From: Myxococcota bacterium
GTDB taxonomy: Bacteria > Myxococcota_A > UBA9160 > SMWR01
Length of the DNA: 64,000 nt
Assembly (NCBI GenBank): GCA_030749415.1
Contig: JASMKC010000023.1
Coordinates: 2,833 to 66,832, forward strand
Direction: 5' to 3'
The translations under genes and the position numbers were made by a program. Below the pieces are notes generated by a model. It did not search any database and was not told the origin of the DNA. It worked only from the letters and a program-made list of their open reading frames with translations. Positions 37,195 to 54,239 of the stretch are shown here, piece by piece (position 1 is the stretch's first letter; each line of letters starts with the position of its first letter).

Positions 37195-37575
37195 TTACTC
37201 CCCCAGCCCTCGAATCTCTTTTACCGTGACCGTGACCGCATTCTGGATCGGGGGCAGCTTGAGCCCTTTCTCCTCGATGGCCGCTGCCAGCCGATCGTAG
37301 ACGGGACCGTCCTGCGCGAGTTCGGCCGTGCCCTTGAATTGAAAGCCCTGGAATTTTTCGGGACGACAGACGTAGACAGCCACCCGCTGATTCTGCTCGA
37401 GGTTGGCTCTCGATCCCGGGCTCATGATGTCGGCAAAAGCCAGGTGGTCTTCATCCAGAACCATGATGGAGCCCTTCGGGCTCACATTGGGCTCGCCGTC
37501 GCTCGAAGCGGTTGCCACGTAGCAAAGGCCCACTTCCTCGATGAAACTCTTGTGTTCGTCTTCGATCAATCCCAT
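37195..37575 (-). CDS. pyridoxamine 5'-phosphate oxidase-family small flavoprotein
   Basis: CYVATASSDGEPNVSPKGS and the 126-aa length fit the split-barrel family. Confidence 0.7.
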   Translation of the reverse strand: MGLIEDEHKSFIEEVGLCYVATASSDGEPNVSPKGSIMVLDEDHLAFADIMSPGSRANLEQNQRVAVYVCRPEKFQGFQFKGTAELAQDGPVYDRLAAAIEEKGLKLPPIQNAVTVTVKEIRGLGE

Positions 37576-37915: not shown

Positions 37916-39793
37916 TTGTTTGACGATTCCGGTTCATTGTCCGAGTCGCTGATGCGCGACGTCTTCGAAGCTGCACCCGACGCGATACTCGTCGTGGATG
38001 AGGACGGCAGGATCTTGCTGTGTAACGAGCGCGCGACCGTGCTCTCCGGCTATACGCGCGACGAGTTACTCGCACTGAACGTTGATCTGCTGGTGCCAGA
38101 ACGGGTGCGGAGCGCGCACACGTCTCACCGGGCCGCGTACACCAGGGCGCCCACGCCGCGGGTTATGGCGGGCGACATTGGCCTGCGAGCGCTGCGCAAG
38201 GATGGGAGCGAGTTCAGCGCAGAGATCTGTCTGAGTCCGCTCGGCCACAGCAATCGGCCGCTGTTCATGGCCGCGGTCCGAGACATCACGGAACGCCGGC
38301 ACCAGGAGTCGCGGCTCAGCGGTCTTCTCGAAGCCACACCGGACGCGATTATCATCGTGAATGCCGACGGCAAGATAATCACCGTCAACGGTGCCGTATC
38401 CCGGGTGTTTGGCTACGAGAGCGGAGAGCTGGTCGGCCAGTCGATGTCCGTACTGGTTCCGGACGACGCCCGCGCAGAACACAGCCGCCACCGGCGGGGA
38501 TATTTCGATGCTCCACATCCGCGACCAATGAGCGCCAGCCCCAATCTGCGGGCCCAGCACAAAGACGGACGGGTCTTTCCCGCTGAGATCAGCTTGAATC
38601 CGATCAATACTCACGACGGCATACTGACGGTCGCCGCCGTTCGCGACGTCACAGAGCAACGAAGGCTGGAGCGGCAGGTCGCCGTCAGTGAGCGCCTCGA
38701 TTCGCTCGGTCGACTCGCAAGCGCAGTTGCGCACGAGATCAACAACCCGCTGACCTACGTCATGTCCAATCTCGATTTCCTGGCCGACGAGGTTGGGACT
38801 CGAGGGGGAGGCGATGGTGACCCCGAAGAGATCGAAGAGATCATCGAGGACGCGAGGCAGGGGGCCGAGCGGGTCCGTCGTATCGTCAGCGGCTTGCGGA
38901 ACTTCTCTCGTTCCGACAACGAACGCACCGAAAGAGTCGATGTCCGCAGGATCCTCGACCTGTCGTGCAAGATCGCGGCAGACGAGATCCAGCATCGCGC
39001 GCGGCTGATCGAAGCGTATGGGGATATGCCCAAGGTAGACGCCAACGAGACCCAGCTCAGCCATGTCTTCGTCAACCTGCTGGTCAACGCCGCTCACGCG
39101 TTCGAAGGCACAGCCCGTGAGGACAACGAGATCCGGATCAGCTCTGGTGTCGACGAGAACCACGTGATCGTGTCTGTTCAGGACAACGGCCGCGGTATCC
39201 CGGTTGAGCTGATCGACGAGATATTTCAACCGTTCGTGACGACCAGACGCGTCGAGGGCGGCAGCGGGCTCGGCCTTCCGATAAGCCAAAACATCATCCA
39301 GGGGTACGGTGGTCAGATCAACGTCGAGTCCCGGTCGGGCGAAGGGAGCACGTTCAGCGTCGTATTGCCCATTGCGGTCGGCGAGGATGAGCCCACTGCA
39401 CCTGAGGGGACCGCTGCCACGCCACGTCGGGCAAAGGTCATGCTCGTCGACGACGAGCCGATGGTCGCAAGTGCAATTGCGCGACTTCTCGCAAAGTGGC
39501 ACGACGTCGAGGTATGCAACAGCGCGGACGCTGCACTGAAACAGCTCGAGGCAGAGGAATTCGACATCATCCTCTGCGACGTGATGATGCCCGGCACGGC
39601 ACCTCGCGAGCTCCACGAGCAGATTTCCCAGGTGCGGCCCAAACTCGCCGAGAACATGCTCTACCTGAGCGGCGGTGCGTTCACCGAGGACGCCAAAGCA
39701 TTCCTCGTGTCCATACCGCACCGATGCCTCGCCAAGCCCGTCGAGATCCGGGATCTGCTCGACGCGATCGAAAACTCCATCGCCGCTCGTTAG
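37916..39793 (+). CDS. hybrid sensor histidine kinase (PAS-PAS-HisKA-HATPase-REC)
   Basis: Two PAS cores (ILVVDEDGRILLCNE, IIIVNADGKIITVNG), H-box AHEINNPLTYV, DNGRGIP, GSGLGLPISQ, and REC VMLVDDEP...ILCDVMMPG. TTG 37916 or ATG 37952 is the start. Confidence 0.9.
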   Translation: MFDDSGSLSESLMRDVFEAAPDAILVVDEDGRILLCNERATVLSGYTRDELLALNVDLLVPERVRSAHTSHRAAYTRAPTPRVMAGDIGLRALRKDGSEFSAEICLSPLGHSNRPLFMAAVRDITERRHQESRLSGLLEATPDAIIIVNADGKIITVNGAVSRVFGYESGELVGQSMSVLVPDDARAEHSRHRRGYFDAPHPRPMSASPNLRAQHKDGRVFPAEISLNPINTHDGILTVAAVRDVTEQRRLERQVAVSERLDSLGRLASAVAHEINNPLTYVMSNLDFLADEVGTRGGGDGDPEEIEEIIEDARQGAERVRRIVSGLRNFSRSDNERTERVDVRRILDLSCKIAADEIQHRARLIEAYGDMPKVDANETQLSHVFVNLLVNAAHAFEGTAREDNEIRISSGVDENHVIVSVQDNGRGIPVELIDEIFQPFVTTRRVEGGSGLGLPISQNIIQGYGGQINVESRSGEGSTFSVVLPIAVGEDEPTAPEGTAATPRRAKVMLVDDEPMVASAIARLLAKWHDVEVCNSADAALKQLEAEEFDIILCDVMMPGTAPRELHEQISQVRPKLAENMLYLSGGAFTEDAKAFLVSIPHRCLAKPVEIRDLLDAIENSIAAR

Positions 39794-40105: not shown

Positions 40106-40744
40106 CTAGGCGACGCCCAGCAGGTCCCTGGCGAGGGTGACGCCGTCCTTCGCCTGCGCGCCCCAGCCATCTGCCCCCTCTTTCTCTGCCCACGCTTTCG
40201 TCGTGACGGCACCGCCGACGATGACCGGGTACTTCTCGCGCACTTCGAGCTCCTTCAATATGCCGATGAGCTCGGTGAACTTCTCCATCGCGGGAGCGAA
40301 GACCACGGACACGGCGATCATGTCCGCTCCCTCCTTCTCGGCGGTCTCGTAGAAGTCGAACGGCGAGTTCTTCTCGCCGATGTCGATGACGTCGAAGCCT
40401 CCGATCGAGAGCAGGGTGCTCACCAGGTTCTTTCCGATGTTGTGCTGGCTGAGCATGGTTCCGAGTACGATCTTCTTGTCGTGCTTGGCGCTCTGGCCTT
40501 CGGGGAAGGCCTCCTGGATGAGGGGGATGCAGGCCTTGGCAGTGACGCCGCCCTTGACGAGATCCAGGACGATCGCCTGCTTGGCGGCAAATCGATCCCC
40601 CACTTCGGTGAGGCCGTCCATGATGCCAGATTCCAGGATCTCCATCGGGTCGAGGCCGGCGGCGAGCAGCTCGCGGGTCATCTCCGCTGCCTCTTCCGGC
40701 TTGGTCTCGCTCACCAGCCGTCTCAGGTCTTCGATCGTCGGCAT
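40106..40744 (-). CDS. corrinoid (B12-binding) protein with an atypical Co-ligand motif
   Basis: ATG 40744 follows GGAGGAG. It has a B12-cap plus Rossmann-like layout (KIVLGTMLSQHNIGKNLV...DVIDIG...ADMIAVSV...VIVGGA). SQHNIG (40433-40450) stands where DxHxxG is expected. Confidence 0.8.
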   Translation of the reverse strand: MPTIEDLRRLVSETKPEEAAEMTRELLAAGLDPMEILESGIMDGLTEVGDRFAAKQAIVLDLVKGGVTAKACIPLIQEAFPEGQSAKHDKKIVLGTMLSQHNIGKNLVSTLLSIGGFDVIDIGEKNSPFDFYETAEKEGADMIAVSVVFAPAMEKFTELIGILKELEVREKYPVIVGGAVTTKAWAEKEGADGWGAQAKDGVTLARDLLGVA

Positions 40745-40791
40745 TGCTTCTCCTCCCGGGGAGCTTGGGCCCGCCCCGTGGATCGTGGGCG

Positions 40792-42147
40792 TTAGTCGTC
40801 CCACGACGGGTAGTCGAGGCCCCACTCCTTGAAGATCCGTGTGAACTTCTTGTAATGGTCGACGAATTCCGGAATGGGCCTCAGCGTACTCATGTCGTAC
40901 AGCTTGTCGATCGTGGCCGCGGGCGGCGCCGGTGCACATTCGGCGGCGTTGGCCTTCTTGATGATCTCGATGCCTTCGCGCGGGCTGAGTGCGGCCGCCG
41001 CACGAGACAGCTCACCAGCCCAGCGGGCCTCCAGCCCGGTCGACCCTCCGGACAGCCACGTCGCTTCCATTCCCGAGATGCACGCATTGATGATGCAGAC
41101 GGCTGTGCCGTACCAGGAGCTGTCGCTCATGGGTCCACTGGGGTCGGCGGTGCCTCCCATCGTCAGCCATGGCAGCCGGAGATTCTGCTCAGCCGCAAGG
41201 GCAGCAGCCGAGTTGCTCCATGTGATGTCGTTTCCCGAGTAGACGCCGTGGACCGATACCGACATCCCCTGGGTGAGCGTCCCGCCCGAGTAGGCGAGCA
41301 TGCCCAGGGTATGCGCGATGATCTCGATCGCGCCTTGTTCGGGACCGGTCAGGTAGGCGTACAGCGTGGGAGAGGAGCTCATCCACGGCTCGAGTCCTTG
41401 CTGCTCCGCGAAGAAGGTGAGATTGAAGCGGTCGTAGTTGACCCGCATGTCCATCAAGATCTGGACGGGAAGCGTGCAGTTGTACTTGTTGTAGAGGCCC
41501 GAGTTGAACGTGCTCATCAGGGTAATGGGCGTCGTGGCACTCATCGGGATGCCGAAGAAGAGACCGGGCCGGCCCGCCCATGTCGCCACGTCGTTCATGA
41601 TCCGGGCTTCCGTCAGGCAGACGAGCGTGTGCGCGGGGGTCTCCGCGATGTTCTTCGTCTTGCCGACGCCGAAGAGCGGCAGCGGAAACACGCCATCGCA
41701 GGTGGGTTCCCGAACGACGGTCAGGGCATGGGCCCGGTAGATATCGACATCCCTCGTGATCGTGCCCGCGGGAGGCCAACAGTAGGGGTGCTTTGCATCA
41801 CCCGGCGCCCTGGGAGTGAGCCTGATCTCGTCCCGACCCTGCCCGAACGTGACCTCGTGTCTCGCTGTGGCGATGGCTTCCTTGATCTCTTCCTCGGTGA
41901 ACTTGATGATTCGTTTCGTGTCCTGGCAATAGAGCCCGAGCTCGAGCAGGAGCTCCATGCCGGCCTGGAAGACGGCATCCGCCATGTCCGGGTCGGCCAT
42001 GACCGGCTCGTCGGGATCGGCTTCGATCTTGTACTTGGCCTGAACGGACGCGAGAACGGACGGGAGTAACTCGGTTTCGAACTTCTCCTCCGCCATGATT
42101 GGCCCGGTGGTCGACCGCTGAATCGCTTCCCAGAAAAGCCTACCCAT
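40792..42147 (-). CDS. MtmB-family (monomethylamine methyltransferase-like) protein, non-pyrrolysine
   Basis: Blocks match my recollection of archaeal MtmB: AGMELLLELGLYCQDTKRIIKFTEEEI, WAGRPG, GLEARWAGELSRA. The 451-codon ORF has no in-frame TAG. Confidence 0.75.
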   Translation of the reverse strand: MGRLFWEAIQRSTTGPIMAEEKFETELLPSVLASVQAKYKIEADPDEPVMADPDMADAVFQAGMELLLELGLYCQDTKRIIKFTEEEIKEAIATARHEVTFGQGRDEIRLTPRAPGDAKHPYCWPPAGTITRDVDIYRAHALTVVREPTCDGVFPLPLFGVGKTKNIAETPAHTLVCLTEARIMNDVATWAGRPGLFFGIPMSATTPITLMSTFNSGLYNKYNCTLPVQILMDMRVNYDRFNLTFFAEQQGLEPWMSSSPTLYAYLTGPEQGAIEIIAHTLGMLAYSGGTLTQGMSVSVHGVYSGNDITWSNSAAALAAEQNLRLPWLTMGGTADPSGPMSDSSWYGTAVCIINACISGMEATWLSGGSTGLEARWAGELSRAAAALSPREGIEIIKKANAAECAPAPPAATIDKLYDMSTLRPIPEFVDHYKKFTRIFKEWGLDYPSWDD

Positions 42148-42192: not shown

Positions 42193-43161
42193 CTAACCCT
42201 GCTCGTAGCATTCGCTCTCGCGAATGGAGCGCATCAGCGCTGCACATTCCTGCCCGATGTACCGCATGTGTTGAGACGAGAGCCACGGCATGATGTCTAT
42301 GATGTACCAGGAGAGGTCTTCTGGATTTGTGAAGGTCTCCTCCCATTGAATCGCACTCGCGTCGTGGTTGAGAAGCATCGCCCTGGCCTTGCCGCCGTCG
42401 TTTCCGAACAGGAAGATGCCCGAGGCGTCTTCCTGAAGGGGCAGGGGGCGTTTGAACGATTCGTCCAACACGCGCAGTGCGCTGGCCCAATCGCGATCGC
42501 AGAGATGAGCCGAGTGGATGACGAAGGTCGCGCTCCCCACGTCGATGCCGAGCCGTGCGGCGGCCTCCCGCTGCAGGCGAGTGAGCGACAGCGCCTCGAG
42601 CGGCCAAGCCGCGTAGACGTCCATGCTGCGAATCACGAACGAGCCGAATAGCGCACCTTCGATGACGTTGAAGGTGGCGGAGAGGATCGACGGCGTATTC
42701 TGAGGCGAGCCCATCTCCTGCGGGTCGATCAGCACCAGCGTGCCCGAGCGCGTGTCGTGGGATTGTTTCAGTCGCTCGATCGCCGCGTCGAACTGGCTGA
42801 GCCCGTTCCAGTCGTGCAGGCGCTGGCCGAGCGCCGGGCCCGAGTCGCCGGTGGGAGACGTGGACGTGAACCGTCGGTAGTGCTCGTCGACGTCGGCGCC
42901 ACTGAGGTCGAGGTAAGGCGCGAGTTCCTCCTCCTCGGCGGCTAGCTGGATCGTCACGATCGCGTTCAATGCCTCGGCGATCCTGTCGCCCTGGCCGGTC
43001 GTCTTGTCGGTGCCGATCCGCATGACCAGATTGAGGAGCTGCAGCCAGCCGTCCGCCACGTCGTTGCTGAACATGGGAAAGGTGGTCTTGCGAGAGAGGA
43101 AGCGTTTGCGTTCCGGAATCTGCTCCATTTCGTTTCTCCCGATCACCGGCTTCGACGGCAT
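42193..43161 (-). CDS. thymidylate-synthase-fold protein lacking the catalytic Cys, with a C-terminal extension
   Basis: ThyA-like order of motifs: LGQRLHDW, HDTRSGTLVLIDP, TPSILSATFNV (in place of PCH), VIRSMDVYAAWPLEA (RSxD), VIHSAHLCDRD. About 90 extra C-terminal aa. Confidence 0.6.
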   Translation of the reverse strand: MPSKPVIGRNEMEQIPERKRFLSRKTTFPMFSNDVADGWLQLLNLVMRIGTDKTTGQGDRIAEALNAIVTIQLAAEEEELAPYLDLSGADVDEHYRRFTSTSPTGDSGPALGQRLHDWNGLSQFDAAIERLKQSHDTRSGTLVLIDPQEMGSPQNTPSILSATFNVIEGALFGSFVIRSMDVYAAWPLEALSLTRLQREAAARLGIDVGSATFVIHSAHLCDRDWASALRVLDESFKRPLPLQEDASGIFLFGNDGGKARAMLLNHDASAIQWEETFTNPEDLSWYIIDIMPWLSSQHMRYIGQECAALMRSIRESECYEQG

Positions 43162-43167
43162 CGCGCT

Positions 43168-43827
43168 TTAGCGGTTGGGGGCGCAGAAGGTGCGAATGAA
43201 CTGACTCTCGAGTCGTTGCAGGATGACTTCGTGCGGGGTCTCGCCGCCGTGCTCGAGCCAGTAGGCGAGCTCCACTTGCTTGAGTGCCAGCATCTTGCGC
43301 ACCAGCAGGTCGGGGTCCTCGTCGACGTAGATCCCCTCCGCGATGCCGCGGGCAAATAGGTCCCGGGGAATCGGGACGCCTTGCTTCCAGATCTCGCTCT
43401 CGCCCGCCGACTTCGGGAAGCCGGACGCCCAGCCGTAGCCGTCGCGACAGCACATGCGCAGGAAGTCGGGCCTCTCGAGGAAGTAGGCGGCCCCCCGCTT
43501 GAGAACGGAGAGATGGCTCTCGAGTGTGTCCGAGTGGGCGTCTCGCGCCTCGCGGATGCAATCCAGGAACTCGCGCATGCGCGTCCGGTGGATGCTGTTG
43601 AAGAGCGACTCCTTGCCATCGATCACCCCGTAGAGCGTGCCCAGCGAGATGCCGGCTTCGGCCGCGATCTCGCGCATGCGGGAGCGATCTGCCCCCTTCT
43701 GGGCGAAGACGCGCTCGGCGGCTTCGGTGATGACCTGCTGGTAGAGGGTGCGACGCTCCTCTTTCATCCGGCGCTGGATGGCGCTGGGGCGGGTGCGGCG
43801 CGCGCTCTGGCGGTCGGGAGAGGGCAT
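43168..43827 (-). CDS. TetR-family transcriptional regulator
   Basis: HTH region AAERVFAQKGADRSRMREIAAEAGISLGTLYGVI. Its stop is 6 nt before the next gene. Confidence 0.85.
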   Translation of the reverse strand: MPSPDRQSARRTRPSAIQRRMKEERRTLYQQVITEAAERVFAQKGADRSRMREIAAEAGISLGTLYGVIDGKESLFNSIHRTRMREFLDCIREARDAHSDTLESHLSVLKRGAAYFLERPDFLRMCCRDGYGWASGFPKSAGESEIWKQGVPIPRDLFARGIAEGIYVDEDPDLLVRKMLALKQVELAYWLEHGGETPHEVILQRLESQFIRTFCAPNR

Positions 43828-43941: not shown

Positions 43942-44440
43942 TCACTGTGTTATTCGGACGCCGTCCTCGTCTTCGGAGCGCACCCAGACGCCCACGAACT
44001 CGAGTTCCGGGTGCCCCAGGATCGCGCGCAACGCGAAGGCTCCGACGTTTCCCGTACTCCGCTGGATCACGCGGTAGCTCGCGGGCGTCTCCTTCCAGAC
44101 CAGGCGCATGATCTCGAGCTGCTCGTCCAGCCGGCGGCCGCGCTCCTCGTGTGGGATCCCGAAGGCTTCGTACTCCTCGGCCTGCCAGCTGCCGATCGGA
44201 AGGATCGTCACGCGACCCCCGGAGACGAGGTCGAGGGTCGCCCACTGCTTGGCGTTCAGGAGCGGGTGACGCAGTGGTGCGAGCGTCGCAGCCGCGTTCA
44301 ATCGAATCGTCTTCGTCACCGCGGCGATCGCCGACAGCATCACGATCTGGCTCGGCATGTGCTGGTCCGGTGCCGCGCCTGCTGGGTCGTGGCACCGAGG
44401 GTGCAAGAGTGCGATTTTGTCGCTGCGCGCAATGCGCGGG
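43942..44440 (-). pseudogene. chimeric remnant: internal LLM-oxidoreductase fragment fused in frame to the N-terminus of a Rossmann (DapB-like / amine-dehydrogenase-like) protein
   Basis: ...MLSAIAAVTKTIRLNAAATLAPLRHPLLNAKQWATLDLVSGGRVTILPIG... (LLM core) runs directly into VIQRSTGNVGAFALRAILGHPELEFVGVWV, followed by a stop. Neither part is full length. Confidence 0.5.
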
Positions 44441-44505: not shown

Positions 44506-45684
44506 ATGGAGAAAGCACGGACGGTCGATCTCGCGTTCGCCGAGCTGCCCGGTCACGAGATGTTCGAGCTCCTCGAGGAGCTGCGGGGCGATGGTCCGCT
44601 GGCCCGCGCGACGTTCGCCGGTGCGCCCTGCTTTCTCACCACCACCCACGGCCTTCTGCTCGAGGGCTTCATCGACGCCGCGAAGTTCCCGCCGGCCCGC
44701 CTCTACCAGAACAGCATCGCCCGGGTGATCGGCCCCAACTTCCAGTCGATGGAAGGGGCCAGGCACACCCTGTACCGGCGGCTCGCCACCCCGGCATTTC
44801 GCTCGCGGGCAGTGGAACGCTACGAGCGCGAGGGGATGGCGGAGCTGGCTCACGAGCTGCTGGAGCGTCTGGACGGGCGCGGCGAGGCCGATCTCGCGAG
44901 TGCGTTCACGCACCGCTTCCCGTTCCTGGTGCTCTGCCGCCTGGTCGGGATTCCCCGGGACCGGGAAGACGAGTTCCACCAATGGGCGGCGGAGATGGTG
45001 ACTCCGCCAAACGTGCCGCTCGAGGTCTGCCGCCGCGCCGCCGCCGAGTTCACGCGCTACCTCGCGCCCACCTTGGCCGAGCGCCGCCGCGAGCCCCGCA
45101 GCGACGTGATCTCCGAACTGATCGCCGCCGAGGTGGAGGGACGCCACCTCACGGACGAGGAGATCTCCTCCCACGTGAAGCTCATGTTTTCCGCCGGTGC
45201 AACGACGACGTGCGATGGCATCGGAAACCTGCTGCACGCATTGCTCTCACACTCCGGCGCCTGGGAGCAGGTGGTCGACGATCCCTCCGTCCGCGCCACG
45301 GCCGTTCACGAGTCGCTGCGGTGGCAGACGCCGGTGCCCAACCTTCCACGCATCTCGGCCGAGGAGACCGTCGAGTTCGGCGGAAGGGAGATCCCGCCGA
45401 AGAGCTTCGTCCTCTTCAGCATGGCGTCGGCGAATCGGGATCCCGCGGTCTACGACGATCCCCACCGCTTCGACCCGGCCCGCAGCTCGCGCGATATCCT
45501 GAGTTTCGGGCGTGGCGAGCGCTCCTGTCCCGGCATGCACCTGGCGAAGAAGGAACTCTCGATCGCCCTCGACGTGCTGATCGACCGTTTCCCGAAGCTG
45601 CGGCTGCAGGGCGACCCCCAGGCCTCGGCTCCGACCGGTGCCATCATCCGCGGTCCGAAGACCCTGCCCGTCGCACTCCAGTAG
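44506..45684 (+). CDS. cytochrome P450
   Basis: ATG 44506. I-helix FSAGATTT, ESLRWQTP (ExxR), haem loop FGRGERSCPGMHLA. Confidence 0.9.
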   Translation: MEKARTVDLAFAELPGHEMFELLEELRGDGPLARATFAGAPCFLTTTHGLLLEGFIDAAKFPPARLYQNSIARVIGPNFQSMEGARHTLYRRLATPAFRSRAVERYEREGMAELAHELLERLDGRGEADLASAFTHRFPFLVLCRLVGIPRDREDEFHQWAAEMVTPPNVPLEVCRRAAAEFTRYLAPTLAERRREPRSDVISELIAAEVEGRHLTDEEISSHVKLMFSAGATTTCDGIGNLLHALLSHSGAWEQVVDDPSVRATAVHESLRWQTPVPNLPRISAEETVEFGGREIPPKSFVLFSMASANRDPAVYDDPHRFDPARSSRDILSFGRGERSCPGMHLAKKELSIALDVLIDRFPKLRLQGDPQASAPTGAIIRGPKTLPVALQ

Positions 45685-45764
45685 GGTCGCACCGGCGAGT
45701 GGGGCCGAGCGTTCGGCGGCAGACGAGCCTGCCTCGCCCGGCCTGCCCCGGGGACCCGTCAGGT

Positions 45765-45904
45765 GAGCGCAGGAAGTTCAAGCGTTGGTCCCGCGACGGC
45801 GAGTACGGGAACAGCGACGGCGAGTACGGGAAGTTCAAGCTGCGTTTTCGCTGGGTCCGATCAGCAGACATTCTGTCCAATGGGGACCGGGTCCCAACAC
45901 GGGG
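45765..45904 (+). repeat. interspersed 5' module (45822-45904) preceded by a partial duplicate of its own 5' end (45765-45793) and a 17-bp local duplication
   Basis: gagcgcaggaagttcaagcgttggtcccg, then cgacggcgagtacggga twice (45794-45810, 45815-45831), then agttcaagctgcgttttcgctgggtccgatcagcagacattctgtccaatggggaccgggtcccaacacgggg. Confidence 0.8.
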
Positions 45905-46097
45905 CGGTGATGTTTTCGACCGCGGTGATGCTTCTCAACCTCGAGGCGCCGCCGCCGCTCGTGCCGGATGCGGCCTCCCCGGAATCCCGCGGGCCCGACT
46001 CGAAGCCGCGGCCGCACGCCGCCGGATAGCGCTACGTTGACGGATCCGGCAGGAGGAGGCTCGGCAGCCATGTCAGGAGGCGCAGAGGCGGCAGGCC

Positions 46098-46350
46098 GGC
46101 TCGACTGCATCTTCGTCAACGCCGGAATCGGCGGTGCGCCATCGGCTAGGTCATCGATAGCGGGGCGGAAGACTGGGACTTCACTTTCGGTGTCCTGGTC
46201 CGCGGCGCCTTCCCGGGCATCGAGCACGTGTCCCAGGGCATGCAGGCCCAAGGCGGGGGGGGGCGCGAGCATCAACACGGCATCGGTCGCGGGTGTGACC
46301 GGCGTCTGCCCGCCCGTCGACGGCGGCCTCACGAGTCTCGGCGTCGACAT
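46098..46350 (+). pseudogene. decayed short-chain dehydrogenase/reductase (SDR)
   Basis: SDR motifs sit in two different frames: LDCIFVNAGIGG and GGGASINTASVAG in one, EDWDFTFGVLVRGAFPGIEHVSQGMQAQGGGG in another. The frames join at a G9 run (46255-46263). The N-terminal Rossmann region and the YxxxK region are missing. VDGGLT follows directly. Confidence 0.55.
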
Positions 46351-46463
46351 CCGCCGGACCATGGGCCGGGACGAAGCCGCCGCCTCGCCCCTCGCGGGCA
46401 TCACGGCCATCGACTACGGCAGCACCGGCGCGCCGCCCAAGATCCGGCCCGGAAGTAGCCGCT

Positions 46464-47108
46464 TTGAGCGCTGAAGACCGCAAGCTGATCGACGCAATCG
46501 TCGGAATGCGTGAGCAGGAGGCCGTCGAGCTCGCGACCGCGCGACTCGAGGCCGCCGGCGAGCCCCTCGAGATCCTGGATCTCTGCAAGCAGGCGATGGA
46601 CGTCGTCGGCCGGAATTTCGAAGAGGGTGAGTTCTTCATCCCCGAGCTGGTGATGGCCGGCGAGATCCTCTCGCAGATTTCGGCCGTGGTGAAGCCGCAC
46701 ATCGCGGTGGGCGCCAAGGCGCCGGGAGAGCGGCGAGCAACGGTACTGCTCGGCACTGTGCACGGAGACATCCACGACATCGGCAAGAACATCGTGGGCT
46801 TCATGCTCGATGTGAACGACTTCGAGGTCTGCGACCTGGGCGTCGATGTCACGCCGGAGCGCTTCATCGAGGCGATCGAGCGGCATGCCCCCGACGTGGT
46901 TGCGCTGAGCGGCTTCCTGACGCTCTCTTTCGGCTCGATGAAGCGCACCATCGAGGCGATCGCAGAGGCCGGGCTTCGCGACGACGTGAAGATCATGATC
47001 GGCGGCGGCCAGGTGGACGAGGCGATCCTCGAGTTCACCGGCGCCGATTCCTTTGGCGCCAATGCGATGAGCGCAGTCAATCTCTGCCGGCAGTGGGCGG
47101 ACGCGTGA
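46464..47108 (+). CDS. corrinoid (B12-binding) protein, canonical
   Basis: Cap domain FEEGEFFIPELVMAG. Canonical GTVHGDIHDIGKNIV. DVVALSGFLT and IMIGGG also present. TTG start. Confidence 0.9.
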   Translation: MSAEDRKLIDAIVGMREQEAVELATARLEAAGEPLEILDLCKQAMDVVGRNFEEGEFFIPELVMAGEILSQISAVVKPHIAVGAKAPGERRATVLLGTVHGDIHDIGKNIVGFMLDVNDFEVCDLGVDVTPERFIEAIERHAPDVVALSGFLTLSFGSMKRTIEAIAEAGLRDDVKIMIGGGQVDEAILEFTGADSFGANAMSAVNLCRQWADA

Positions 47109-48355
47109 ACGAGACCGGCACCGAACTCTTCGAGGAACGCTCGCAGCGGATTCGAGACGCCGTCGAGCTACGGGAGCCCGATCGCGTTCCCTTCTCCACG
47201 ATCTGGCACTTCTGGCCGGCGCGTTACGCCGGGATGACCTGCCGGGAGGCAATGTACGAGTACGATCGCTACAGCGCCGCGATGCGCAAGGCCGTGCTCG
47301 ATCTCGAGCCCGACTCCTTCGCGTTCATGCAGCCCGCCGTGAGCCTCGGGCCGGCGTTCGAGCAGCTGGGTTTCCGCATGCTCGAGTGGCCCGGTCATGG
47401 TGTCGATTCGGATTCCACGTACCAGTACATCGACCGCGAGTACATGAAGGCGGACGAGTACGACGACTTCCTCTTCGATCCCACGGGCTTCTTCCTGAGG
47501 AAGTACCTGCCGAGAGTCGCCGACGCCTTCGAGGGGTTCGCGGGCTTTCCGGACTTCCCCGCCTCTCCCTACTTTGGGCTCGTGCACGCGGCACCTGCGT
47601 TCGCGACGCCCGGGATGGCCGAGAGCTTCGAGCGGCTGGCGGGCGCCGGGCGGGAGATGATGCAGATGGTCGGGTCGGGCCTGCCGGTGGTCCAGGAGCT
47701 GGCCGAGCTCGGCTTCCCCACGGTCTTCGGCGGCTTCTCCATGGCGCCCTACGACTACATTGCCGACTACATGCGCGGCTCTCGCGGCGCCATGCTCGAC
47801 ATGTTCCGCCATGAAGAGAAGATGATCGCGGCGATCGAGAAGGCGCGCGCCATCATCGTTCGAGGCACGATCGAGCGCCCCTCCCCACTCCCCTCGAAGA
47901 CCGTGTTCATTCCGCTCCACTGGGGACTCGACGGATTCATGTCGGATGAGCAGTTTGCCAAGTTCTACTGGCCGCAGCTGCGCGAACTCCTGACGGCACT
48001 CATCGACGCCGATCTGACCCCGCTGGTGCTCTGGGAGGGGAACTGCGAATCTCGCCTCGAGAGAATTGCGGATATCCCGCCCGGCAAGGCCATCTACTTC
48101 TTCGAGCGCACCGATCCCTTCAAGGCGAAGGCTGTACTCGGCGACACCGTTTGCCTGCGGGGCTTTGTGCCGGCATCGATCCTGACTACCGGCAAGCCCG
48201 CCGAGGTCGAGGACTACTGCAAGCGGCTGATCGATGGCTGCGCGCCCGGGGGTGGGCTGATCGTCGATGGCTCGATCGGCATCCCCGACGACGCGCGGAT
48301 CGAGAACGTCTTTGCGATGCGCGACGCCGTCTGGAACTACGGACAGGCCCGGTAG
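47105..48355 (+). CDS. uroporphyrinogen-decarboxylase (UroD/MtaA/CmuA)-family corrinoid methyltransferase
   Basis: The GTG overlaps the upstream stop (GTGA). UroD-family TIM-barrel-like pattern over 416 aa (DRVPFST..., VFIPLHWGLDGF, GGGLIVDGSIGIP). Sits in a corrinoid operon. Confidence 0.75.
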   Translation: MNETGTELFEERSQRIRDAVELREPDRVPFSTIWHFWPARYAGMTCREAMYEYDRYSAAMRKAVLDLEPDSFAFMQPAVSLGPAFEQLGFRMLEWPGHGVDSDSTYQYIDREYMKADEYDDFLFDPTGFFLRKYLPRVADAFEGFAGFPDFPASPYFGLVHAAPAFATPGMAESFERLAGAGREMMQMVGSGLPVVQELAELGFPTVFGGFSMAPYDYIADYMRGSRGAMLDMFRHEEKMIAAIEKARAIIVRGTIERPSPLPSKTVFIPLHWGLDGFMSDEQFAKFYWPQLRELLTALIDADLTPLVLWEGNCESRLERIADIPPGKAIYFFERTDPFKAKAVLGDTVCLRGFVPASILTTGKPAEVEDYCKRLIDGCAPGGGLIVDGSIGIPDDARIENVFAMRDAVWNYGQAR

Positions 48356-48420
48356 CCGCACGTGACCGTGCACTCCTTGGCGAATCGGCGGACCCAGAGC
48401 GGGGAGCGAAAGGAGAACCG

Positions 48421-49131
48421 GTGCCGGTCGTGAGCGACGTCCCGCTCGAGATCTCGCTGGCCGAGCTGAAACGGCTGCGCACGCTCCACGGAAAGGACGG
48501 GCTGCACCCACGGCTTCGCGCGCTGCTTCCGGAGATCCTCGCCGAGGCGGTCGGGCAGAAGGTGCTCCAGCCCGCGGTCGCCTGGGAGTCGCGACGCCTT
48601 CTGGAAGCGACCGGCACTCGCGTTCGACTCGCCGGCGGGCCGGAGCTGGCGCGGGCGAAGGCCGTCGTCGAGTTGCTGGGTGAAGCGGACGAACTCGTCG
48701 CGGCGGTCGGCAGCATCGGCCCGGAACTCGATCTCATGGCTCGTGACTGGTCTGCGAGCGGACGTGAGCTGGACGCCTTCGTGCTCGGTGAGATCGGCAA
48801 TCTGGCCATCGGAAAGCTCGCCGATCGCATGCCGGAGATCATCTCGGAGTGGGCTGCCGGCCGCGGACTCGAAGCGAGCGGCGCACTCAGTCCGGGTGGA
48901 ACCGGAGTCGATCTCTCCGACCAGCGCGTCGTGGTCGAGCTTGCGAACGCCCAGCGAATCGGCGTCGATCTCACCAGCGGCCAAATGCTCGTACCGCTCA
49001 AGTCGATGTCCCTGTTGATTGGCCTGGGGCACGGGCTCCCGACGTGGACCCACGCGCAGGCGTGTGATCTCTGCGCTTCGCGCGAGCACTGTCGCCTGCG
49101 CCGGTCGAACTCGGAGCCCGCCGTCGCGTAG
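48421..49131 (+). CDS. MetH activation-domain-like protein (B12 methyltransferase reactivation/accessory)
   Basis: GTG 48421 follows AGGAGA. SPGGTGVDLSDQRVVVELANAQRIGVDLTSGQMLVPLKSMSLLIGLG matches the activation-domain core pattern. C-terminal CDLCASREHC. Confidence 0.6.
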   Translation: MPVVSDVPLEISLAELKRLRTLHGKDGLHPRLRALLPEILAEAVGQKVLQPAVAWESRRLLEATGTRVRLAGGPELARAKAVVELLGEADELVAAVGSIGPELDLMARDWSASGRELDAFVLGEIGNLAIGKLADRMPEIISEWAAGRGLEASGALSPGGTGVDLSDQRVVVELANAQRIGVDLTSGQMLVPLKSMSLLIGLGHGLPTWTHAQACDLCASREHCRLRRSNSEPAVA

Positions 49132-49157
49132 CGGGGGTCTGGCATTATGGTCACACG

Positions 49158-50672
49158 GTGAACGACCCGGTCCGGATCGACCTGCACCCCCTGGGTCGCA
49201 GCATTCAGGTGGAGCGAGGCACCAGCCTGCGCGATGTCCTCTACGCCTATGGCGTCGAGTTCCCGTGTGGAGGACAGGGGCGCTGCCGGCGCTGCCGGGT
49301 CCAGCTGCTGGAGGGCACGCTGCCCATCGGCGTCGAGGAGAGCGCCATCCTCTCCGACCGCGAGAAGGAGGAGGGCTGGCGGCTGGCCTGCCGCTGCCGG
49401 GTGGAGGCGCCGGTCACGCTGCAGGTGGAGCAGTTCCGGGCCCCGATTCTGGTGGATCACACGCCCTTCGCCTTCCAGCCGCGACCGGGCCATGGCGTGG
49501 CCGTGGACCTGGGGACCACCACCCTGGTGGCGCAGCTCCTCGATCTCGAGACCGGCAGGGTGCTGGCGGCCCAGACCGCACTCAACCCCCAGGGCGTCTC
49601 CGGCAGCGACATCATGCACCGCATCCAGTTCGCCCTGAACGAAGACGGGCGCAAGCAGCTGATGCAGCTGGTGCGCGACGCCGTGGCCGGGCTGGTGCGC
49701 CGCGCGGTGGCGAGCGCAGGGCTCCGCAGCGCCCCGTTGGAGACGCTGGTGCTGGTGGGAAATACGGCGATGCACCACCTCTTCTGCGGGCTTGACGTAG
49801 CGCCGTTGGCCGCCGTCCCGTTCGAGTCCGAGAGGATCGGCCTCCAGGAGTTCCGGGCCGACGAGATCGGCTGGCAGCTTCGGGGCAACCCGCGGATCCG
49901 CTTCCTGCCCTGTCTGGGAGGCTTCGTGGGCAGCGACCTGCTGGCCGGCGTGCTCGCCACCCGCCTGCACGAGCGCGATGAGCTCGCGGTGCTCGTAGAC
50001 CTGGGAACCAACGGCGAGATCGTGGCGGGGAATGCGCAGCGCATGCTCTGCACCTCCACCGCGGCGGGTCCCGCCTTCGAGGCCGGCGGAATCGAGATGG
50101 GAATGCAGGCCACGACCGGCGCCATCGACGGGGTGACGGCGGGCAACGGCGTCCTGGAGTGCCGCGTGCTGGGCGGCGGCGAGGCGCGCGGAATCTGTGG
50201 CAGCGGGTTGGTGGACGCGGTGGCCGCCGGCCTGGACCTGGGCTGGATCGAGCCCGGCGGTCGGCTTGCGGACGGCCGCAAGATTCTCCAGTTGGACGGC
50301 AGCGTGCATTTGACCCAGGGCGATATCCGCCAGTTGCAGCTGGCCAAGGGAGCCATCGCCGCGGGACTGAAAATCCTCCTCGAGCGCCTGGGCGCGGCAG
50401 CCGGGACCGCACCCCGGGTGAACCTGGCCGGGGCGTTCGGAAACTACGTGAACCGCGACAGCGCCCGGCGCATCGGCCTGCTCGACTACCCCGGCGCGAA
50501 CGTGGAGCCCGTGGGGAATACGGCGCTGCTAGGCGCGAAGTTGGCGCTATTCGCACCGGAGCGGGAGGCCCAGGAGATCTCGCAGCTGAGCGCGCGCATC
50601 GAGCACGTCTCGCTGGCGGCGGATCCGAGCTTCCAGAACGTCTTCATCGGCGAGTTGCGCTTCCCCGGCTGA
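49158..50672 (+). CDS. RACo-type reductive activator of corrinoid proteins (2Fe-2S ferredoxin plus ASKHA ATPase)
   Basis: N-terminal CGGQGRCRRC...C cluster. ASKHA motifs AVDLGTTTLVAQL and VLVDLGTNGEIV. ICGSGL also present. Confidence 0.85.
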   Translation: MNDPVRIDLHPLGRSIQVERGTSLRDVLYAYGVEFPCGGQGRCRRCRVQLLEGTLPIGVEESAILSDREKEEGWRLACRCRVEAPVTLQVEQFRAPILVDHTPFAFQPRPGHGVAVDLGTTTLVAQLLDLETGRVLAAQTALNPQGVSGSDIMHRIQFALNEDGRKQLMQLVRDAVAGLVRRAVASAGLRSAPLETLVLVGNTAMHHLFCGLDVAPLAAVPFESERIGLQEFRADEIGWQLRGNPRIRFLPCLGGFVGSDLLAGVLATRLHERDELAVLVDLGTNGEIVAGNAQRMLCTSTAAGPAFEAGGIEMGMQATTGAIDGVTAGNGVLECRVLGGGEARGICGSGLVDAVAAGLDLGWIEPGGRLADGRKILQLDGSVHLTQGDIRQLQLAKGAIAAGLKILLERLGAAAGTAPRVNLAGAFGNYVNRDSARRIGLLDYPGANVEPVGNTALLGAKLALFAPEREAQEISQLSARIEHVSLAADPSFQNVFIGELRFPG

Positions 50673-50865: not shown

Positions 50866-51432
50866 TCAGCGGGTCGAGGTGAGAGCCGCCACGATTGCGG
50901 CGGCGAGCTGCTCTGCCAGCTGCTTCTCGGCGCGCACCAGTGCCGCATAGCCCTCGCTCTCGAGCGGTATCGACCGCGCAAAGCGGTACTCCGTCGGGGC
51001 CGAGGCTGCACCCGACGTGATCTGGAAGCTCGCCACCAGCACTGCGTTGCCGGACATCGTGCCGTGAAACTGCTCCACGAAGACATCGACGCTCCGCTCC
51101 CACTGCGGCACCGAGCGGGTCACCATGCCGACCTCTTCGCCGAGTGCGTCAGCGATGGCGGCGCGCAGGAAGAGGGTCAACCCAACGTCGAGTGGCTCGG
51201 CCCATAAATGACTCCGTGCCGGACGCACCTCGTTCTCTGTGGTTTCGACCGCGAGGCCGGGCTGATTGAGATAGGCGGCGACCAGAACTCGACGCAGCCC
51301 AACGCGCGACCTGCTGGGGAGCACCTCTGCGGAGGGTGGGGCGTCGTAGCGGAGCAGGTACTCGGTCTTCGGGGGCGGCGCGCTGGCGCACGCCACCGCA
51401 AATACCAGCAGCAATCCGGGGACAGCTCTCAT
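50866..51432 (-). CDS. pqiC: PqiC/YmbA-like lipoprotein
   Basis: Lipobox LLVFAVAC. The start overlaps the pqiB stop (ATGA). It is the third gene of a pqi-type operon. Confidence 0.7.
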   Translation of the reverse strand: MRAVPGLLLVFAVACASAPPPKTEYLLRYDAPPSAEVLPSRSRVGLRRVLVAAYLNQPGLAVETTENEVRPARSHLWAEPLDVGLTLFLRAAIADALGEEVGMVTRSVPQWERSVDVFVEQFHGTMSGNAVLVASFQITSGAASAPTEYRFARSIPLESEGYAALVRAEKQLAEQLAAAIVAALTSTR

Positions 51433-53015
51433 TGGTTCCCCGCAGGCGGTATGAGGTCCGGCGAAACTCGGTGAGCGAAGATGAGTGAGTTCGGCTGTTC
51501 GTTCAGAGTGATCGCGAGCTCGCGGATGCTCTCTAGTGAGTGATCCAACCCGACCAGGGCGGCCAGCAGTTGTCCCTGCAGAGCGGAGTCCCCAGAAATA
51601 CTGTCGAGTGTCTGGCGCACGTTGGCCAGCGTGGCTTCGAGAGCAACGGGAAGCTCTTGCATCGATTCACTCGCGAGCAATCGATCGGCACTCCCGATCG
51701 CATCGCTGGCCGAGCTGGCCAACTGCTCGAGCGGCAGGTCGTTCAGCTTCGCGAGCAGATTCGAAACCTGGTATTCGAGGCCCTCGAGACCGGAGGGAAG
51801 CGTCGGAATCGTCTGCCGACCGGCGTAGCTCCCCAGTGCCGAACCCGCTTCGCGCTCGTGGATGTCGAGTGCGATGTATTTGCTCCCAGTGATGAGGCTC
51901 CCGGTCGCGAGGCTGGCGTGCATGCCGAGCGCAACGGAATTCTTGATGGCTTTTCGCATCTGGGCAGCGCCCGCTTTGTTGTCCGGCAAGAGCATCCGCC
52001 CCGGTTGGATCGTAATCAGAACGGGAATGGGTTCACCCGCACCTGAAATCGACAGCTCGTTTATCAGGATGTCTTCGACTCTACCGATCCGAAGGCCTCG
52101 GTAGTCTACCGGAGCTCCCGCCTTCAAACCTCGAATCGACTGGTCGAAACGAACGATGTACTCGAGCCCCACTCGGTAGGGATGCCGATTCATGCTCGCA
52201 TGATCGGGATAGAGATCGAAGGAGGCACCGTTTGAAACGGGTTCACCCGCCGGGACGCCCGTCGGCGCCCCGAAGCTCACCCCGCCGATCAAGAGCGTCA
52301 ACAGGGAGCCTGTTTCGATCTGGATACCGTCGGCTGTGGCGTTGAAGGAAATGCCGCTGGTGTTCCAGAAACGCGTCGAGCTGTTTATCAGCTGCTGGTA
52401 GTTTTCCTCGATGAAGACCGAGTACTGCATTTTTCCGGTCTCCACGTCGAACCTGGCGCTTTCGATGCGCCCGACGCGGAAGCCCTTGTGAAGAATGGGG
52501 TCGCCCGCGCTCACGGAGCCCGCCTTGTCTCCGATCAACTCGATCTTCAATCCGGGTGTTCCGGCCGGTGTGACGGGAGGCTCCGCCAGACCGACAAAGG
52601 AACTCCTCCTGCCCGGCGCATTGCCCGGTGAGAGTTGGATGTAGCCACCCGAAAGCAATGTGGAGATCCCCGACACCCCGCTGGTTCCGAGTCTTGCGGT
52701 CACCACCCAGAATTCGGTGTCTTCTCGGAGCAGCGGCTCGGTTTCCTTGTCGAGCCGCGCCTTCACGACGATGCTCTTCAAGTCTTCGCCGAGGCCCACG
52801 CTCTCGACCAGTCCGACGACTACGTCGAGAACCTTCACTTTGGTCTTTCCCGGCTCGATCCCGCTCGCGGTGGGGAACTCGATTTCGATCTTGGGCCCCT
52901 GGTTCTGGTAGGTGTAGATCAACATCCAGAAACCCAGCAACAGGGCAACCACCGGTACGATCCATATCGGTGAGATGCGCCTGCGTTCGGTCACCCTGGG
53001 CTTTGCATCAGTCAT
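51429..53015 (-). CDS. pqiB: PqiB-like multi-MCE-domain intermembrane transport protein
   Basis: N-terminal TM segment (ISPIWIVPVVALLLGFWM) followed by repeated MCE-like segments, 528 aa. Overlaps pqiA by 8 nt. Confidence 0.85.
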   Translation of the reverse strand: MTDAKPRVTERRRISPIWIVPVVALLLGFWMLIYTYQNQGPKIEIEFPTASGIEPGKTKVKVLDVVVGLVESVGLGEDLKSIVVKARLDKETEPLLREDTEFWVVTARLGTSGVSGISTLLSGGYIQLSPGNAPGRRSSFVGLAEPPVTPAGTPGLKIELIGDKAGSVSAGDPILHKGFRVGRIESARFDVETGKMQYSVFIEENYQQLINSSTRFWNTSGISFNATADGIQIETGSLLTLLIGGVSFGAPTGVPAGEPVSNGASFDLYPDHASMNRHPYRVGLEYIVRFDQSIRGLKAGAPVDYRGLRIGRVEDILINELSISGAGEPIPVLITIQPGRMLLPDNKAGAAQMRKAIKNSVALGMHASLATGSLITGSKYIALDIHEREAGSALGSYAGRQTIPTLPSGLEGLEYQVSNLLAKLNDLPLEQLASSASDAIGSADRLLASESMQELPVALEATLANVRQTLDSISGDSALQGQLLAALVGLDHSLESIRELAITLNEQPNSLIFAHRVSPDLIPPAGNQ

Positions 53016-53631
53016 GCGTTCTCTCCTCCTGGTCCCAGATCAGTCGTGGATCGAAGGCCTCGGCGGCTAGCATCGTGACGATTACCATCGCTCCGAAAGC
53101 GAGCGCGGCGGGTCCCGGCGTGATGACGAGCAAGCCGCCCAACTGAATCAGGGCGACGAGCACCGAGACCACGAAGACGTCGGTCATCGACCATTTCCCG
53201 ATCAGTTCCGTCACGCGGTAGATTCGAGTTCTCTGACGATGCGCCACCCCGTGCGAGCCCGAGATGCTCCAGGAAAGCCACGTCAAGGCGAATAGCTTGA
53301 CGATGGGAACGACCACGCTGGCGACGAAGATGACAGCCGCGATCGGGTACGAGCCGTGATGGATGAGAAGAAGGATGCCGCCGATGATCGTGCTCTCGGT
53401 GATGTTCCCCAGTTGGTTGGTGCTCATGATGGGCAGAACATTGGCCGGGATGTAGAGCAATGCTGCAGTGATCGTGAGCGCGATCGTCCTCTGTCTGCTG
53501 TCCGGAAGCCGGGTGTGAAGCGAGGCCCCACAGAGTCCGCAGGAATGTGCCGTGTTCGAACTCAGCTTCAGGCAGACGTGGCAGCAGGCAAGACCCCTGG
53601 ACGCCGCCGTCTCGGGAGAGGGCGACGTCAC
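53008..53631 (-). CDS. pqiA: PqiA-family membrane protein, second half-size paralog
   Basis: The GTG overlaps the upstream stop (GTGA). Motifs CHVC...CGLC followed by TM segments. Confidence 0.8.
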   Translation of the reverse strand: MTSPSPETAASRGLACCHVCLKLSSNTAHSCGLCGASLHTRLPDSRQRTIALTITAALLYIPANVLPIMSTNQLGNITESTIIGGILLLIHHGSYPIAAVIFVASVVVPIVKLFALTWLSWSISGSHGVAHRQRTRIYRVTELIGKWSMTDVFVVSVLVALIQLGGLLVITPGPAALAFGAMVIVTMLAAEAFDPRLIWDQEERTHD

Positions 53632-54239
53632 GCCTGACACGCTTCGATTTCCCGCCAGAGCTGGAAGCGATCGAGGCTGCCGATCGCTGCGATGAAGCAG
53701 AGAACGAAGCCGATATAGGCCCAGAAGGAGATGCCGATGATGACGGTCGCCATCGCTCCGATCTTCACCAGGCTGACGAGCACGCCGATGATGAAGACTT
53801 CCACCATGTTCCACGGATTGAGAGCAAAGAGAAGCCGCCCAGTCGGCACCAGCCAGGAAGACCGGGAGCGACGCCGCAGCGGCACCAGCAGTGCAATCAT
53901 CGTCACGAGCATCACAGCGGGGAGAACGGCGATGGGTAGCAGCACCATCCCCGCCAACACCGCGTACCCGTCTCGGTAAAGCTCGGCACCCGCGCGCGGG
54001 ATCGTCATGACCTTCTCCAGCCCGCTGGCGTGAAGCTCGAGAAAGGGAAAGCTGTTCGCCATCGCAAGCAGTACGGCGGCCGCGAGGGCGAAGGAGAGCG
54101 CGCGGTTCGTTGCTCCATCGTCTTGCGAGGTGAGGAATCGGTCGCAGCGCGGGCAACGCGCCCGCTGGCCGGACTCGAGGCCATCGAGTTCGAGCAGCAG
54201 GTCGCACTCGGGGCAGGCGTTACGCTGAACCTCCAGCAC
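53628..54239 (-). CDS. pqiA: PqiA-family membrane protein, first half-size paralog
   Basis: GTG start. Motifs CPEC...CPRC followed by 4 TM segments. Confidence 0.8.
   Translation of the reverse strand: MLEVQRNACPECDLLLELDGLESGQRARCPRCDRFLTSQDDGATNRALSFALAAAVLLAMANSFPFLELHASGLEKVMTIPRAGAELYRDGYAVLAGMVLLPIAVLPAVMLVTMIALLVPLRRRSRSSWLVPTGRLLFALNPWNMVEVFIIGVLVSLVKIGAMATVIIGISFWAYIGFVLCFIAAIGSLDRFQLWREIEACQA

Follow-up and report, generated by a model that had tools for sequence, protein, structure and literature searches.

Pyrrolysine (Pyl)-free members of the monomethylamine methyltransferase (MtmB) superfamily were recognized long ago, and of the 1,061 Pyl and non-Pyl proteins in a published tree most have no assigned function (PMC13044021). 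EmtA from Denitratisoma sp. DHT3, described in 2019/2020, is about 30% identical to MtmB, has no Pyl codon and methylates estradiol to an androgen (10.1101/714501; PMC7448270). AbeA from Phosphitispora sp. TUW77, described in 2025, catalyzes the reverse of the EmtA reaction, the demethylation of 1-dehydrotestosterone, with AbeB as carrier and AbeC as the second methyltransferase (MT2) (PMC11912376); AbeA and EmtA share 40–57% identity. MtqB from Methanococcoides methylutens Q3c, described in 2026, demethylates tetramethylammonium and choline and was presented as the first non-Pyl MtmB of proven function (PMC13044021), EmtA having been described earlier as Pyl-less and required for estrogen methylation (10.1101/714501). 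In addition, growth of a culture on dichloromethane induced a Pyl-free MtmB-family protein more than any other protein (PMC9768040). In this work, we analyzed a 64-kb stretch of contig JASMKC010000023.1 from a Myxococcota bacterium (hereafter the window), which encodes a full-length, Pyl-free member of the MtmB triosephosphate isomerase (TIM)-barrel superfamily together with a B12-binding carrier. A first-pass annotation of the window had considered non-Pyl MtmB relatives essentially uncharacterized, which does not stand in view of EmtA, AbeA and MtqB; its statement that the substrate of the window protein is open does stand. The kind of protein is already known from these three characterized members, and what is new is the widespread clade itself. 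The gene and the codon at the Pyl-equivalent position are the following.

40792..42147, minus strand: MtmB-superfamily methyltransferase without pyrrolysine, 451 residues, proposed substrate-specific methyltransferase (MT1), from PF05369, 1L2Q and AlphaFold2/Foldseek
41551..41553, minus strand: GGC codon of Gly199, homologous by alignment to the UAG/pyrrolysine-202 codon of Methanosarcina barkeri MtmB

The open reading frame (ORF) is a continuous 451-codon frame with an ATG start (N-terminus MGRLFWEAIQRS) and no in-frame TAG. The peptides AGMELLLELGLYCQDTKRIIKFTEEEI, WAGRPG, GLEARWAGEL and AGRPGLFFGIPMS, quoted in the first-pass annotation, are all present in the translation, and the archaeal string compared with them there is the PDB sequence of M. 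barkeri MtmB1. The protein matched PF05369 (MtmB) with an E-value of 1.5e-45 and 156.3 bits, against a curated cut-off of 25 bits, over profile positions 4–450 of 450. A phmmer comparison to M. barkeri MtmB1 (1L2Q/1NTH) gave an E-value of 1.7e-31 over residues 11–444, with 25% identity between the two proteins. An AlphaFold2 model built on 40 relatives, with a predicted local distance difference test (pLDDT) of 93.2 and a predicted template modeling score (pTM) of 0.93, was placed by Foldseek on 1L2Q with template modeling (TM) scores of 0.89/0.88 and a root-mean-square deviation of 2.9 Å over 460 columns. The second-best fold was MttB/MtgB, with TM scores of 0.44–0.55 and 8–13% identity. As the similarity to PF05369, to 1L2Q and in the model extends across the full length, the likeness is not restricted to a generic TIM-barrel segment, and the initial proposal of an uninterrupted bacterial MtmB homolog is upheld. 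The resemblance to the Methanosarcina enzyme (1L2Q/1NTH) comprises the full-length fold, the GRPG motif, an N-terminal helix block and an adjacent corrinoid protein; the protein is very probably a corrinoid-dependent MT1 working with that adjacent carrier.

In the alignment to the PDB sequence, the Pyl residue (X) of AGRPGMGVXGP is aligned to Gly199 of AGRPGLFFGIP, encoded by GGC at 41553–41551. Glycine at this position is invariant or nearly so in the clade, and EmtA-like sequences carry it too. The close relatives are labeled “monomethylamine:corrinoid methyltransferase” by NCBI and JGI, and these names, the PF05369 membership and the small residual monomethylamine activity reported for MtqB (PMC13044021) would agree with a genuine monomethylamine enzyme that dispenses with Pyl. 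However, the invariant glycine, the 25% identity to MtmB and the absence of any match of the protein to NCBIfam equivalog models argue against such an enzyme, as does the genomic setting: a tRNA search of the 64-kb window found none, hence no tRNA-Pyl, and the Pfam annotation of the window ORFs contains no pyl genes. Pyl is reportedly essential for methylamine activation, which also counts against this explanation. The host further differs from methanogens, where MtbA is the third component, in being a bacterium without a methanogenesis context. Given the invariant glycine in place of the methylamine-activating Pyl, monomethylamine is a very unlikely substrate, and we regard the enzyme implied by the database names as highly improbable.

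The MtmB-like gene belongs to a cluster of four minus-strand genes with spacers of 6, 45 and 44 bp, in which it is accompanied by the following genes.

43168..43827, minus strand: TetR-family regulator (PF00440), first gene of the four-gene cluster
42193..43161, minus strand: protein with a thymidylate synthase (ThyA) fold and PterinBD-DUF4346, 322 residues, short form, from Pfam, fold and synteny
40106..40747, minus strand: cognate corrinoid protein with B12-binding_2 (PF02607) and B12-binding (PF02310) domains, 213 residues

The corrinoid protein gene starts 44 bp past the MtmB-like stop codon, in agreement with the adjacent corrinoid protein mentioned in the first-pass annotation, and its 213-residue product resembles MtbC/MtgC-type corrinoid proteins, below their curated cut-offs. 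A search of the window against Rfam gave no matches, hence no B12 riboswitch; with zero Rfam matches and zero tRNAs, no riboswitch or other RNA was found near the operon. The ThyA-like/DUF4346 partner, the variant motif of the corrinoid protein and an estradiol-induced ortholog, all described below, are features beyond the first-pass annotation.

To assess conservation of the cluster, 31 non-redundant bacterial loci served as the base for synteny counts. The ThyA-like/DUF4346 partner was present in 27 of the 31 loci and the corrinoid protein in 28, and a TetR gene was located upstream of the module in 16. Four of the five incomplete loci had no flanking sequence on the relevant side or were fragmented; the fifth (L023), although flanked by about 2.7 kb in both directions, contains neither the partner nor the corrinoid protein. 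A reverse search through partner homologs retrieved two loci, each with the MtmB-like and corrinoid protein genes. In Proteobacteria, Myxococcota and related metagenome-assembled genomes (MAGs) the order is (TetR)-partner-MtmB-like-corrinoid protein, and in Dehalococcoidia the partner is encoded on the opposite strand after the corrinoid protein, either directly or a few kb downstream. Every clade-linked corrinoid protein (L001–L040) carries SQHNIGKN in place of the DxHxxG sequence, with serine substituted for the aspartate of the His-ligand motif, and the canonical GDxH is kept in a second corrinoid protein of the window and in EmtB-like carriers. A Bathyarchaeota MAG (OY970340.1) contains five MtmB-like copies that are 41–46% identical (L034–L036, L039, L040), with no partner found within 10 kb of them. 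Next to several of these copies are genes for a KstD-like flavoprotein, a BaiCD-like Fe-S flavoenzyme and a molybdopterin oxidoreductase; the best NCBIfam matches of the KstD-like protein were 3-ketosteroid Δ1-dehydrogenase and 4-oxocyclohexanecarboxylate 2-dehydrogenase, both below cut-offs.

Most partner homologs are about 465 residues long (long form, e.g., P0296) and include an N-terminal domain, over which the partner family profile matched the MtrA structures 5LAA and 5L8X with an E-value of about 1e-8. The window lineage and the Denitratisoma protein have the short form, of about 310–322 residues. The central domain matched the NCBIfam archaeal ThyA model with an E-value of 5.6e-25, below cut-off, and Foldseek assigned a ThyA fold with a probability of 1.0 and TM scores of up to 0.80 to deoxycytidine monophosphate (dCMP) hydroxylase. 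In sequence, the partner is closest to the cytidine monophosphate (CMP) hydroxymethylase MilA. Equivalents of ThyA residues Arg166-Ser167-x-Asp169, Pro175, His207 and Tyr209 are kept, and Asn177 is replaced by glutamate. Within the DUF4346 domain, His266, His298 and Cys306 are invariant and could, speculatively, constitute a metal site. A fold search with the three-domain partner was dominated by ThyA matches and uninformative on the DUF4346 domain, and a literature search for “DUF4346” gave no returns. Because of its folate-enzyme fold, the pterin-associated Pfam domain and the ancestral MtrA-like domain, the ThyA-like protein may act as the pterin-side partner, an assignment that we place just short of evenly balanced.

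On the basis of the family and module content, we propose a three-component corrinoid methyl-transfer system with the MtmB-like protein as MT1, with the arguments for and against this proposal about equally balanced. As family and operon suggest, the MtmB-like protein would exchange methyl groups between a small molecule, its substrate, and the downstream carrier, whose corrinoid would alternate between Co(I) and CH3-Co(III). The ThyA-fold/DUF4346 partner would form the third component, coupling the methyl-corrinoid to tetrahydrofolate (THF), as its strict synteny and domain content indicate, and would hold the place usual for an MT2 of the MeTr/MtrH or UroD type. The TetR regulator would adjust expression of the operon on sensing the substrate or a similar ligand. 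Methyl transfer could operate in either direction, as demethylation feeding CH3-THF or as methylation of a phenol; the TetR gene together with the catabolic context favors a catabolic role. Reductive activation could be provided by a further gene of the window.

49158..50672, plus strand: RACo-type reductive activator with Fer2, RACo middle and ASKHA C-terminal domains, from domain annotation

This RACo probably reactivates the Co(II) corrinoid proteins of the island, in that it would re-reduce the Co(II) formed by accidental oxidation. RACo genes also occur near the module in Denitratisoma, in Binatia and in one gammaproteobacterial MAG.

Compared with the known systems, the module shares with EmtA/EmtB and AbeA/AbeB a Pyl-free MtmB-superfamily MT1, an MtmC-like corrinoid protein and a nearby RACo-type activase. 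It differs from emtBCD in that the window carrier has SxHxxG and not DxHxxG, and from AbeC in that the partner is ThyA-like/DUF4346 and TUW77 uses the approximately 28-kDa AbeC. No match to EmtC was found in the window, and EmtD gave weak tblastx similarity only, to a luciferase-like monooxygenase gene at 1209–2462 and to a luciferase-like fragment described below. The non-Pyl MttB enzymes (MtgB, MtcB, MtpB and MtyB) offer a parallel, as Pyl-free paralogs recruited to other substrates within systems of MT1, corrinoid protein, MT2 and activase, although they belong to another superfamily according to the fold and identity values given above. Two other candidates from the literature were set aside: the paper on the Type 1 mlp gene cluster (PMC10418091) makes no mention of MtmB, P450, thymidylate or DUF4346, and the bathyarchaeial lignin O-demethylase MtgB (PMC10989822) is an unrelated MT1 of about 300 residues.

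The close relatives of the window protein form a dense set with 59–100% identity, all of about 450 residues. Outside this set, two representatives reach 46% and 40%, and no other exceeds 32%; in an exhaustive search, 642 clusters at 50% identity matched the query. An identical 10.5-kb contig is present in NCBI, and the 90% cluster contains sequences labeled as Myxococcota or “Deltaproteobacteria” MAGs, among them one from the TARA mesopelagic. Among the GTDB species representatives, 35 loci were found. Their hosts are, besides the Bathyarchaeota genome with its five copies, Myxococcota, “Deltaproteobacteria”, Gammaproteobacteria (including Halieaceae and Steroidobacteraceae), Binatia and Dehalococcoidia, the last with 58–61% identity, and the host MAGs are mostly marine or sedimentary.

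The placement of Pyl and non-Pyl homologs, suggested in the first-pass annotation, was carried out with a neighbor-joining tree of 147 sequences (100 bootstraps, corrected p-distances), in which EmtA was included as a 240-residue N-terminal fragment together with its relatives. The window clade was supported at 99–100% and stands apart from M. barkeri MtmB, and MtqB was placed by its published description only. A split joining the clade, EmtA and the EmtA-like sequences to the exclusion of M. barkeri MtmB1 was supported at 87–100%, in agreement with bit scores. The shared branch and the glycine at the Pyl-equivalent position link the window protein to EmtA, and the 27% identity over 238 residues and the separate, well-supported window clade distinguish them; a sister relationship of the clade to EmtA-like sequences is indicative. 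The EmtA sequence was taken from the supplement of 10.1101/714501, which is damaged by optical character recognition (OCR) and shows frameshifts in the DNA. When the first 243 residues were used to search for homologs, only partial relatives at 62% identity or lower were retrieved, and EmtA itself was not recovered.

This placement bears on a second explanation, in which the module would encode a quaternary-amine or other methylated-amine:corrinoid methyltransferase like MtqB that passes the methyl group to THF and allows marine bacteria to use osmolytes. MtqB likewise lacks Pyl, is homologous to MtmB and has its own corrinoid protein, and it shows that such homologs can demethylate quaternary amines (PMC13044021), which parallels the non-Pyl MttB enzymes. 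Most of the organisms come from marine or sedimentary settings, where such osmolytes abound, and aromatic residues surround the Pyl-equivalent position (WAG[KR]PGLFFG). However, MtqB is described as branching near the Pyl-MtmBs (PMC13044021, tree legend) and as transferring methyl groups to coenzyme M via MtbA, whereas the window clade groups with EmtA-like sequences. No recurring BCCT-type or betaine/choline transport or catabolic genes were found near the module in related loci. We therefore consider an amine substrate of this kind distinctly unlikely.

A cultured relative is provided by Denitratisoma oestradiolicum, in which the ortholog (P0108) is 61% identical to the window protein and corresponds by gene order to DENOEST_v1_1155. 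Its locus (L001; LR778301.1, 1162246–1183622) is composed of TetR, partner, P0108, corrinoid protein, a DUF2889 protein, B12-salvage genes, RACo, adenosine kinase and TetR, an order that maps one-to-one onto DENOEST_v1_1153–1166 in Table S3 of PMC7448270. The emtABCD genes are DENOEST_v1_1167–1170, directly beyond 1153–1166 (PMC7448270, Table S3), and P0108 lies, by gene order, about 10 kb from them. The log2 fold changes between estradiol and acetate in the published proteome are 18.4 for the partner (1153), 23.2 for P0108 (1155) and 4.1 for the corrinoid protein (1156) (PMC7448270); the module proteins are therefore produced, and their levels increase along with those of the estrogen methylation island. 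The table of that study labels 1155 as “phosphoribosylformylglycinamidine cyclo-ligase (PurM)” and 1153 as “thymidylate synthase”, its main text does not mention thymidylate synthase, and the estradiol induction of a second MtmB-like module seems to have gone unremarked. A KstD-like gene is located upstream of the module in Denitratisoma. Neither the window protein nor P0108 was accepted as the EmtA ortholog: the supplement EmtA is 27% identical, and P0108 is the paralog DENOEST_v1_1155 upstream of emtABCD. A role as CH3-THF:estradiol methyltransferase is disfavored by published assays of D. oestradiolicum extracts.

The genomic surroundings point toward hydrophobic or steroid catabolism. KstD-like and BaiCD-like genes flank the archaeal relatives, a metagenomic locus (L041) places the module amid ChsH2-OB, thiolase, acyl-CoA ligase and enoyl-CoA hydratase genes, and Steroidobacteraceae MAGs are among the hosts. 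The window itself encodes two P450s, a luciferase-like monooxygenase, a protein resembling flavin-containing and Baeyer-Villiger monooxygenases, a glucose-methanol-choline (GMC) oxidoreductase, an acyl-CoA dehydrogenase and a BaiCD-like Fe-S flavoenzyme, a set that appears typical of hydrophobic-substrate catabolism, as well as MlaD and PqiA proteins. By analogy with EmtA and AbeA, a hydrophobic steroid-like, cyclic enone or phenolic substrate handled in the same manner is possible, in preference to an amine, and we advance it tentatively. A wider and rather unlikely extension would be a new type of three-component system in which the ThyA-fold/DUF4346 protein replaces the MT2 and the Pyl-free MT1 acts on steroid-like, terpenoid or phenolic rings with carbon-methyl chemistry of the EmtA/AbeA kind; such a type would be widespread among Myxococcota, Proteobacteria, Binatia and Dehalococcoidia of marine waters and sediments, with related Bathyarchaeota MT1s that lack the partner.

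A Binatia MAG (L004; JAXLXM010000001.1, 612–634 kb) contains two tandem clade genes and an EmtB/EmtA-like pair with luciferase-like genes. The same region also holds S-adenosylhomocysteine (AdoHcy) hydrolase, MTHFR and MetK-like ORFs, a homocysteine S-methyltransferase domain protein and RACo, a layout that resembles the estradiol-induced Denitratisoma island.

Several observations weigh against a THF-coupled system acting on steroid-like compounds. The window copy of the partner is of the short form without the N-terminal MtrA-like domain, and the column of the ThyA catalytic cysteine is variable in the partner (S/D/G/A/C), with no conserved equivalent. To our knowledge, no ThyA-fold protein acts on corrinoids. 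The identity to EmtA is just 27% over 238 residues, the EmtA query was OCR-damaged and the tree was a simple neighbor-joining tree. Flanking genes are highly variable between loci and nothing amine-specific recurs among them; contextual support for a steroid-like substrate is therefore circumstantial. In D. oestradiolicum extracts expected to hold the module proteins, N5-methyl-THF failed to support estradiol methylation. Finally, homologs of the module are not listed for Denitratisoma DHT3 or Steroidobacter denitrificans (PMC7448270), and the module is therefore not required for estrogen degradation.

The same catabolic context was also considered in terms of an O- or S-demethylase for methoxylated aromatics or steroids or for methyl-sulfur compounds, which would be oxygen-independent, feed methyl-THF and serve nitrate-respiring and anaerobic bacteria. 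The three-component layout with an activase corresponds to known O-demethylase systems (PMC10989822), the TetR gene is accompanied by oxidoreductases of aromatic or hydrophobic type, and Dehalococcoidia contain the module, as do denitrifier-type genomes in which NapA is encoded alongside. However, the closest characterized relatives perform C-methyl chemistry, and we know of no O-demethylase MT1 that is an MtmB homolog; an enzyme of this kind is thus unlikely, somewhat less so than the amine methyltransferase. NapA (L006, 2600–5566, above the NCBIfam cut-off) is encoded a few kb from the module in a 94%-identical relative, and a Halieaceae MAG (L003, 1–1761) has a molybdopterin oxidoreductase and a NapC/NirT-type cytochrome near the module; NapA is absent from the window at the corresponding position. 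The nearby NapA suggests nitrate-respiring hosts. As the molybdoenzyme in the closest relatives is NapA, it was regarded as a lifestyle marker, and the recurrent molybdopterin enzyme was rejected as a part of the pathway; the molybdoenzymes in Dehalococcoidia and Bathyarchaeota have no assigned class.

Next to the four-gene cluster, a divergent corrinoid methyl-transfer module at 44521–50672 on the plus strand is composed of a P450, a corrinoid protein, a UROD/MtaA-like methyltransferase and the RACo described above. Its two methyl-transfer genes are the following.

46464-47108, plus strand: second corrinoid protein with canonical GDIHDIGKN, from domains and motif
47093-48355, plus strand: UROD/MtaA-like methyltransferase, overlapping the second corrinoid protein gene, from domains

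This pair (46464..48355) is a neighboring module, and its tie to the MtmB-like operon is uncertain. A 250-residue ORF without annotation is located at 48337–49089 on the minus strand, between the UROD/MtaA-like gene and RACo. Between TetR and the P450 there is a luciferase-like monooxygenase fragment (about 43942–44358, minus strand) with weak tblastx similarity to EmtD, for which the gene caller gives 138 residues on the identical NCBI contig and which may be a gene remnant. The corrinoid protein gene is followed immediately by genes for a PNPOx-like flavin mononucleotide protein (37195–37575, minus strand) and a PAS-PAS-HisKA-HATPase-receiver hybrid sensor kinase (37916–39793, plus strand), which are kept on the identical NCBI contig and absent from most related loci. 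On the other side, the corrinoid island adjoins a minus-strand cluster at 50866–54239 encoding an ABC_trans_aux lipoprotein, a protein with three MlaD domains and PqiA, which by its domains is of the lipid or hydrophobic-compound uptake type.

Pyl-free relatives of methylamine methyltransferases have repeatedly yielded unexpected reactions, namely betaine demethylation, estrogen methylation, androgen demethylation and tetramethylammonium use. The clade described here is common in uncultured marine and sediment bacteria, and the automatic annotation as “monomethylamine methyltransferase” would wrongly credit these organisms with methylamine use. With a cultured and expressed representative in the estradiol-induced island of D. 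oestradiolicum, its function is directly testable. If the ThyA-fold/DUF4346 protein is the pterin-side partner, it would introduce a new fold to corrinoid methyl-transfer biochemistry and give a role to a domain of unknown function. New to the family is thus a widespread, misannotated clade that combines a ThyA-fold partner without precedent with a variant corrinoid protein and that has an estradiol-induced representative.

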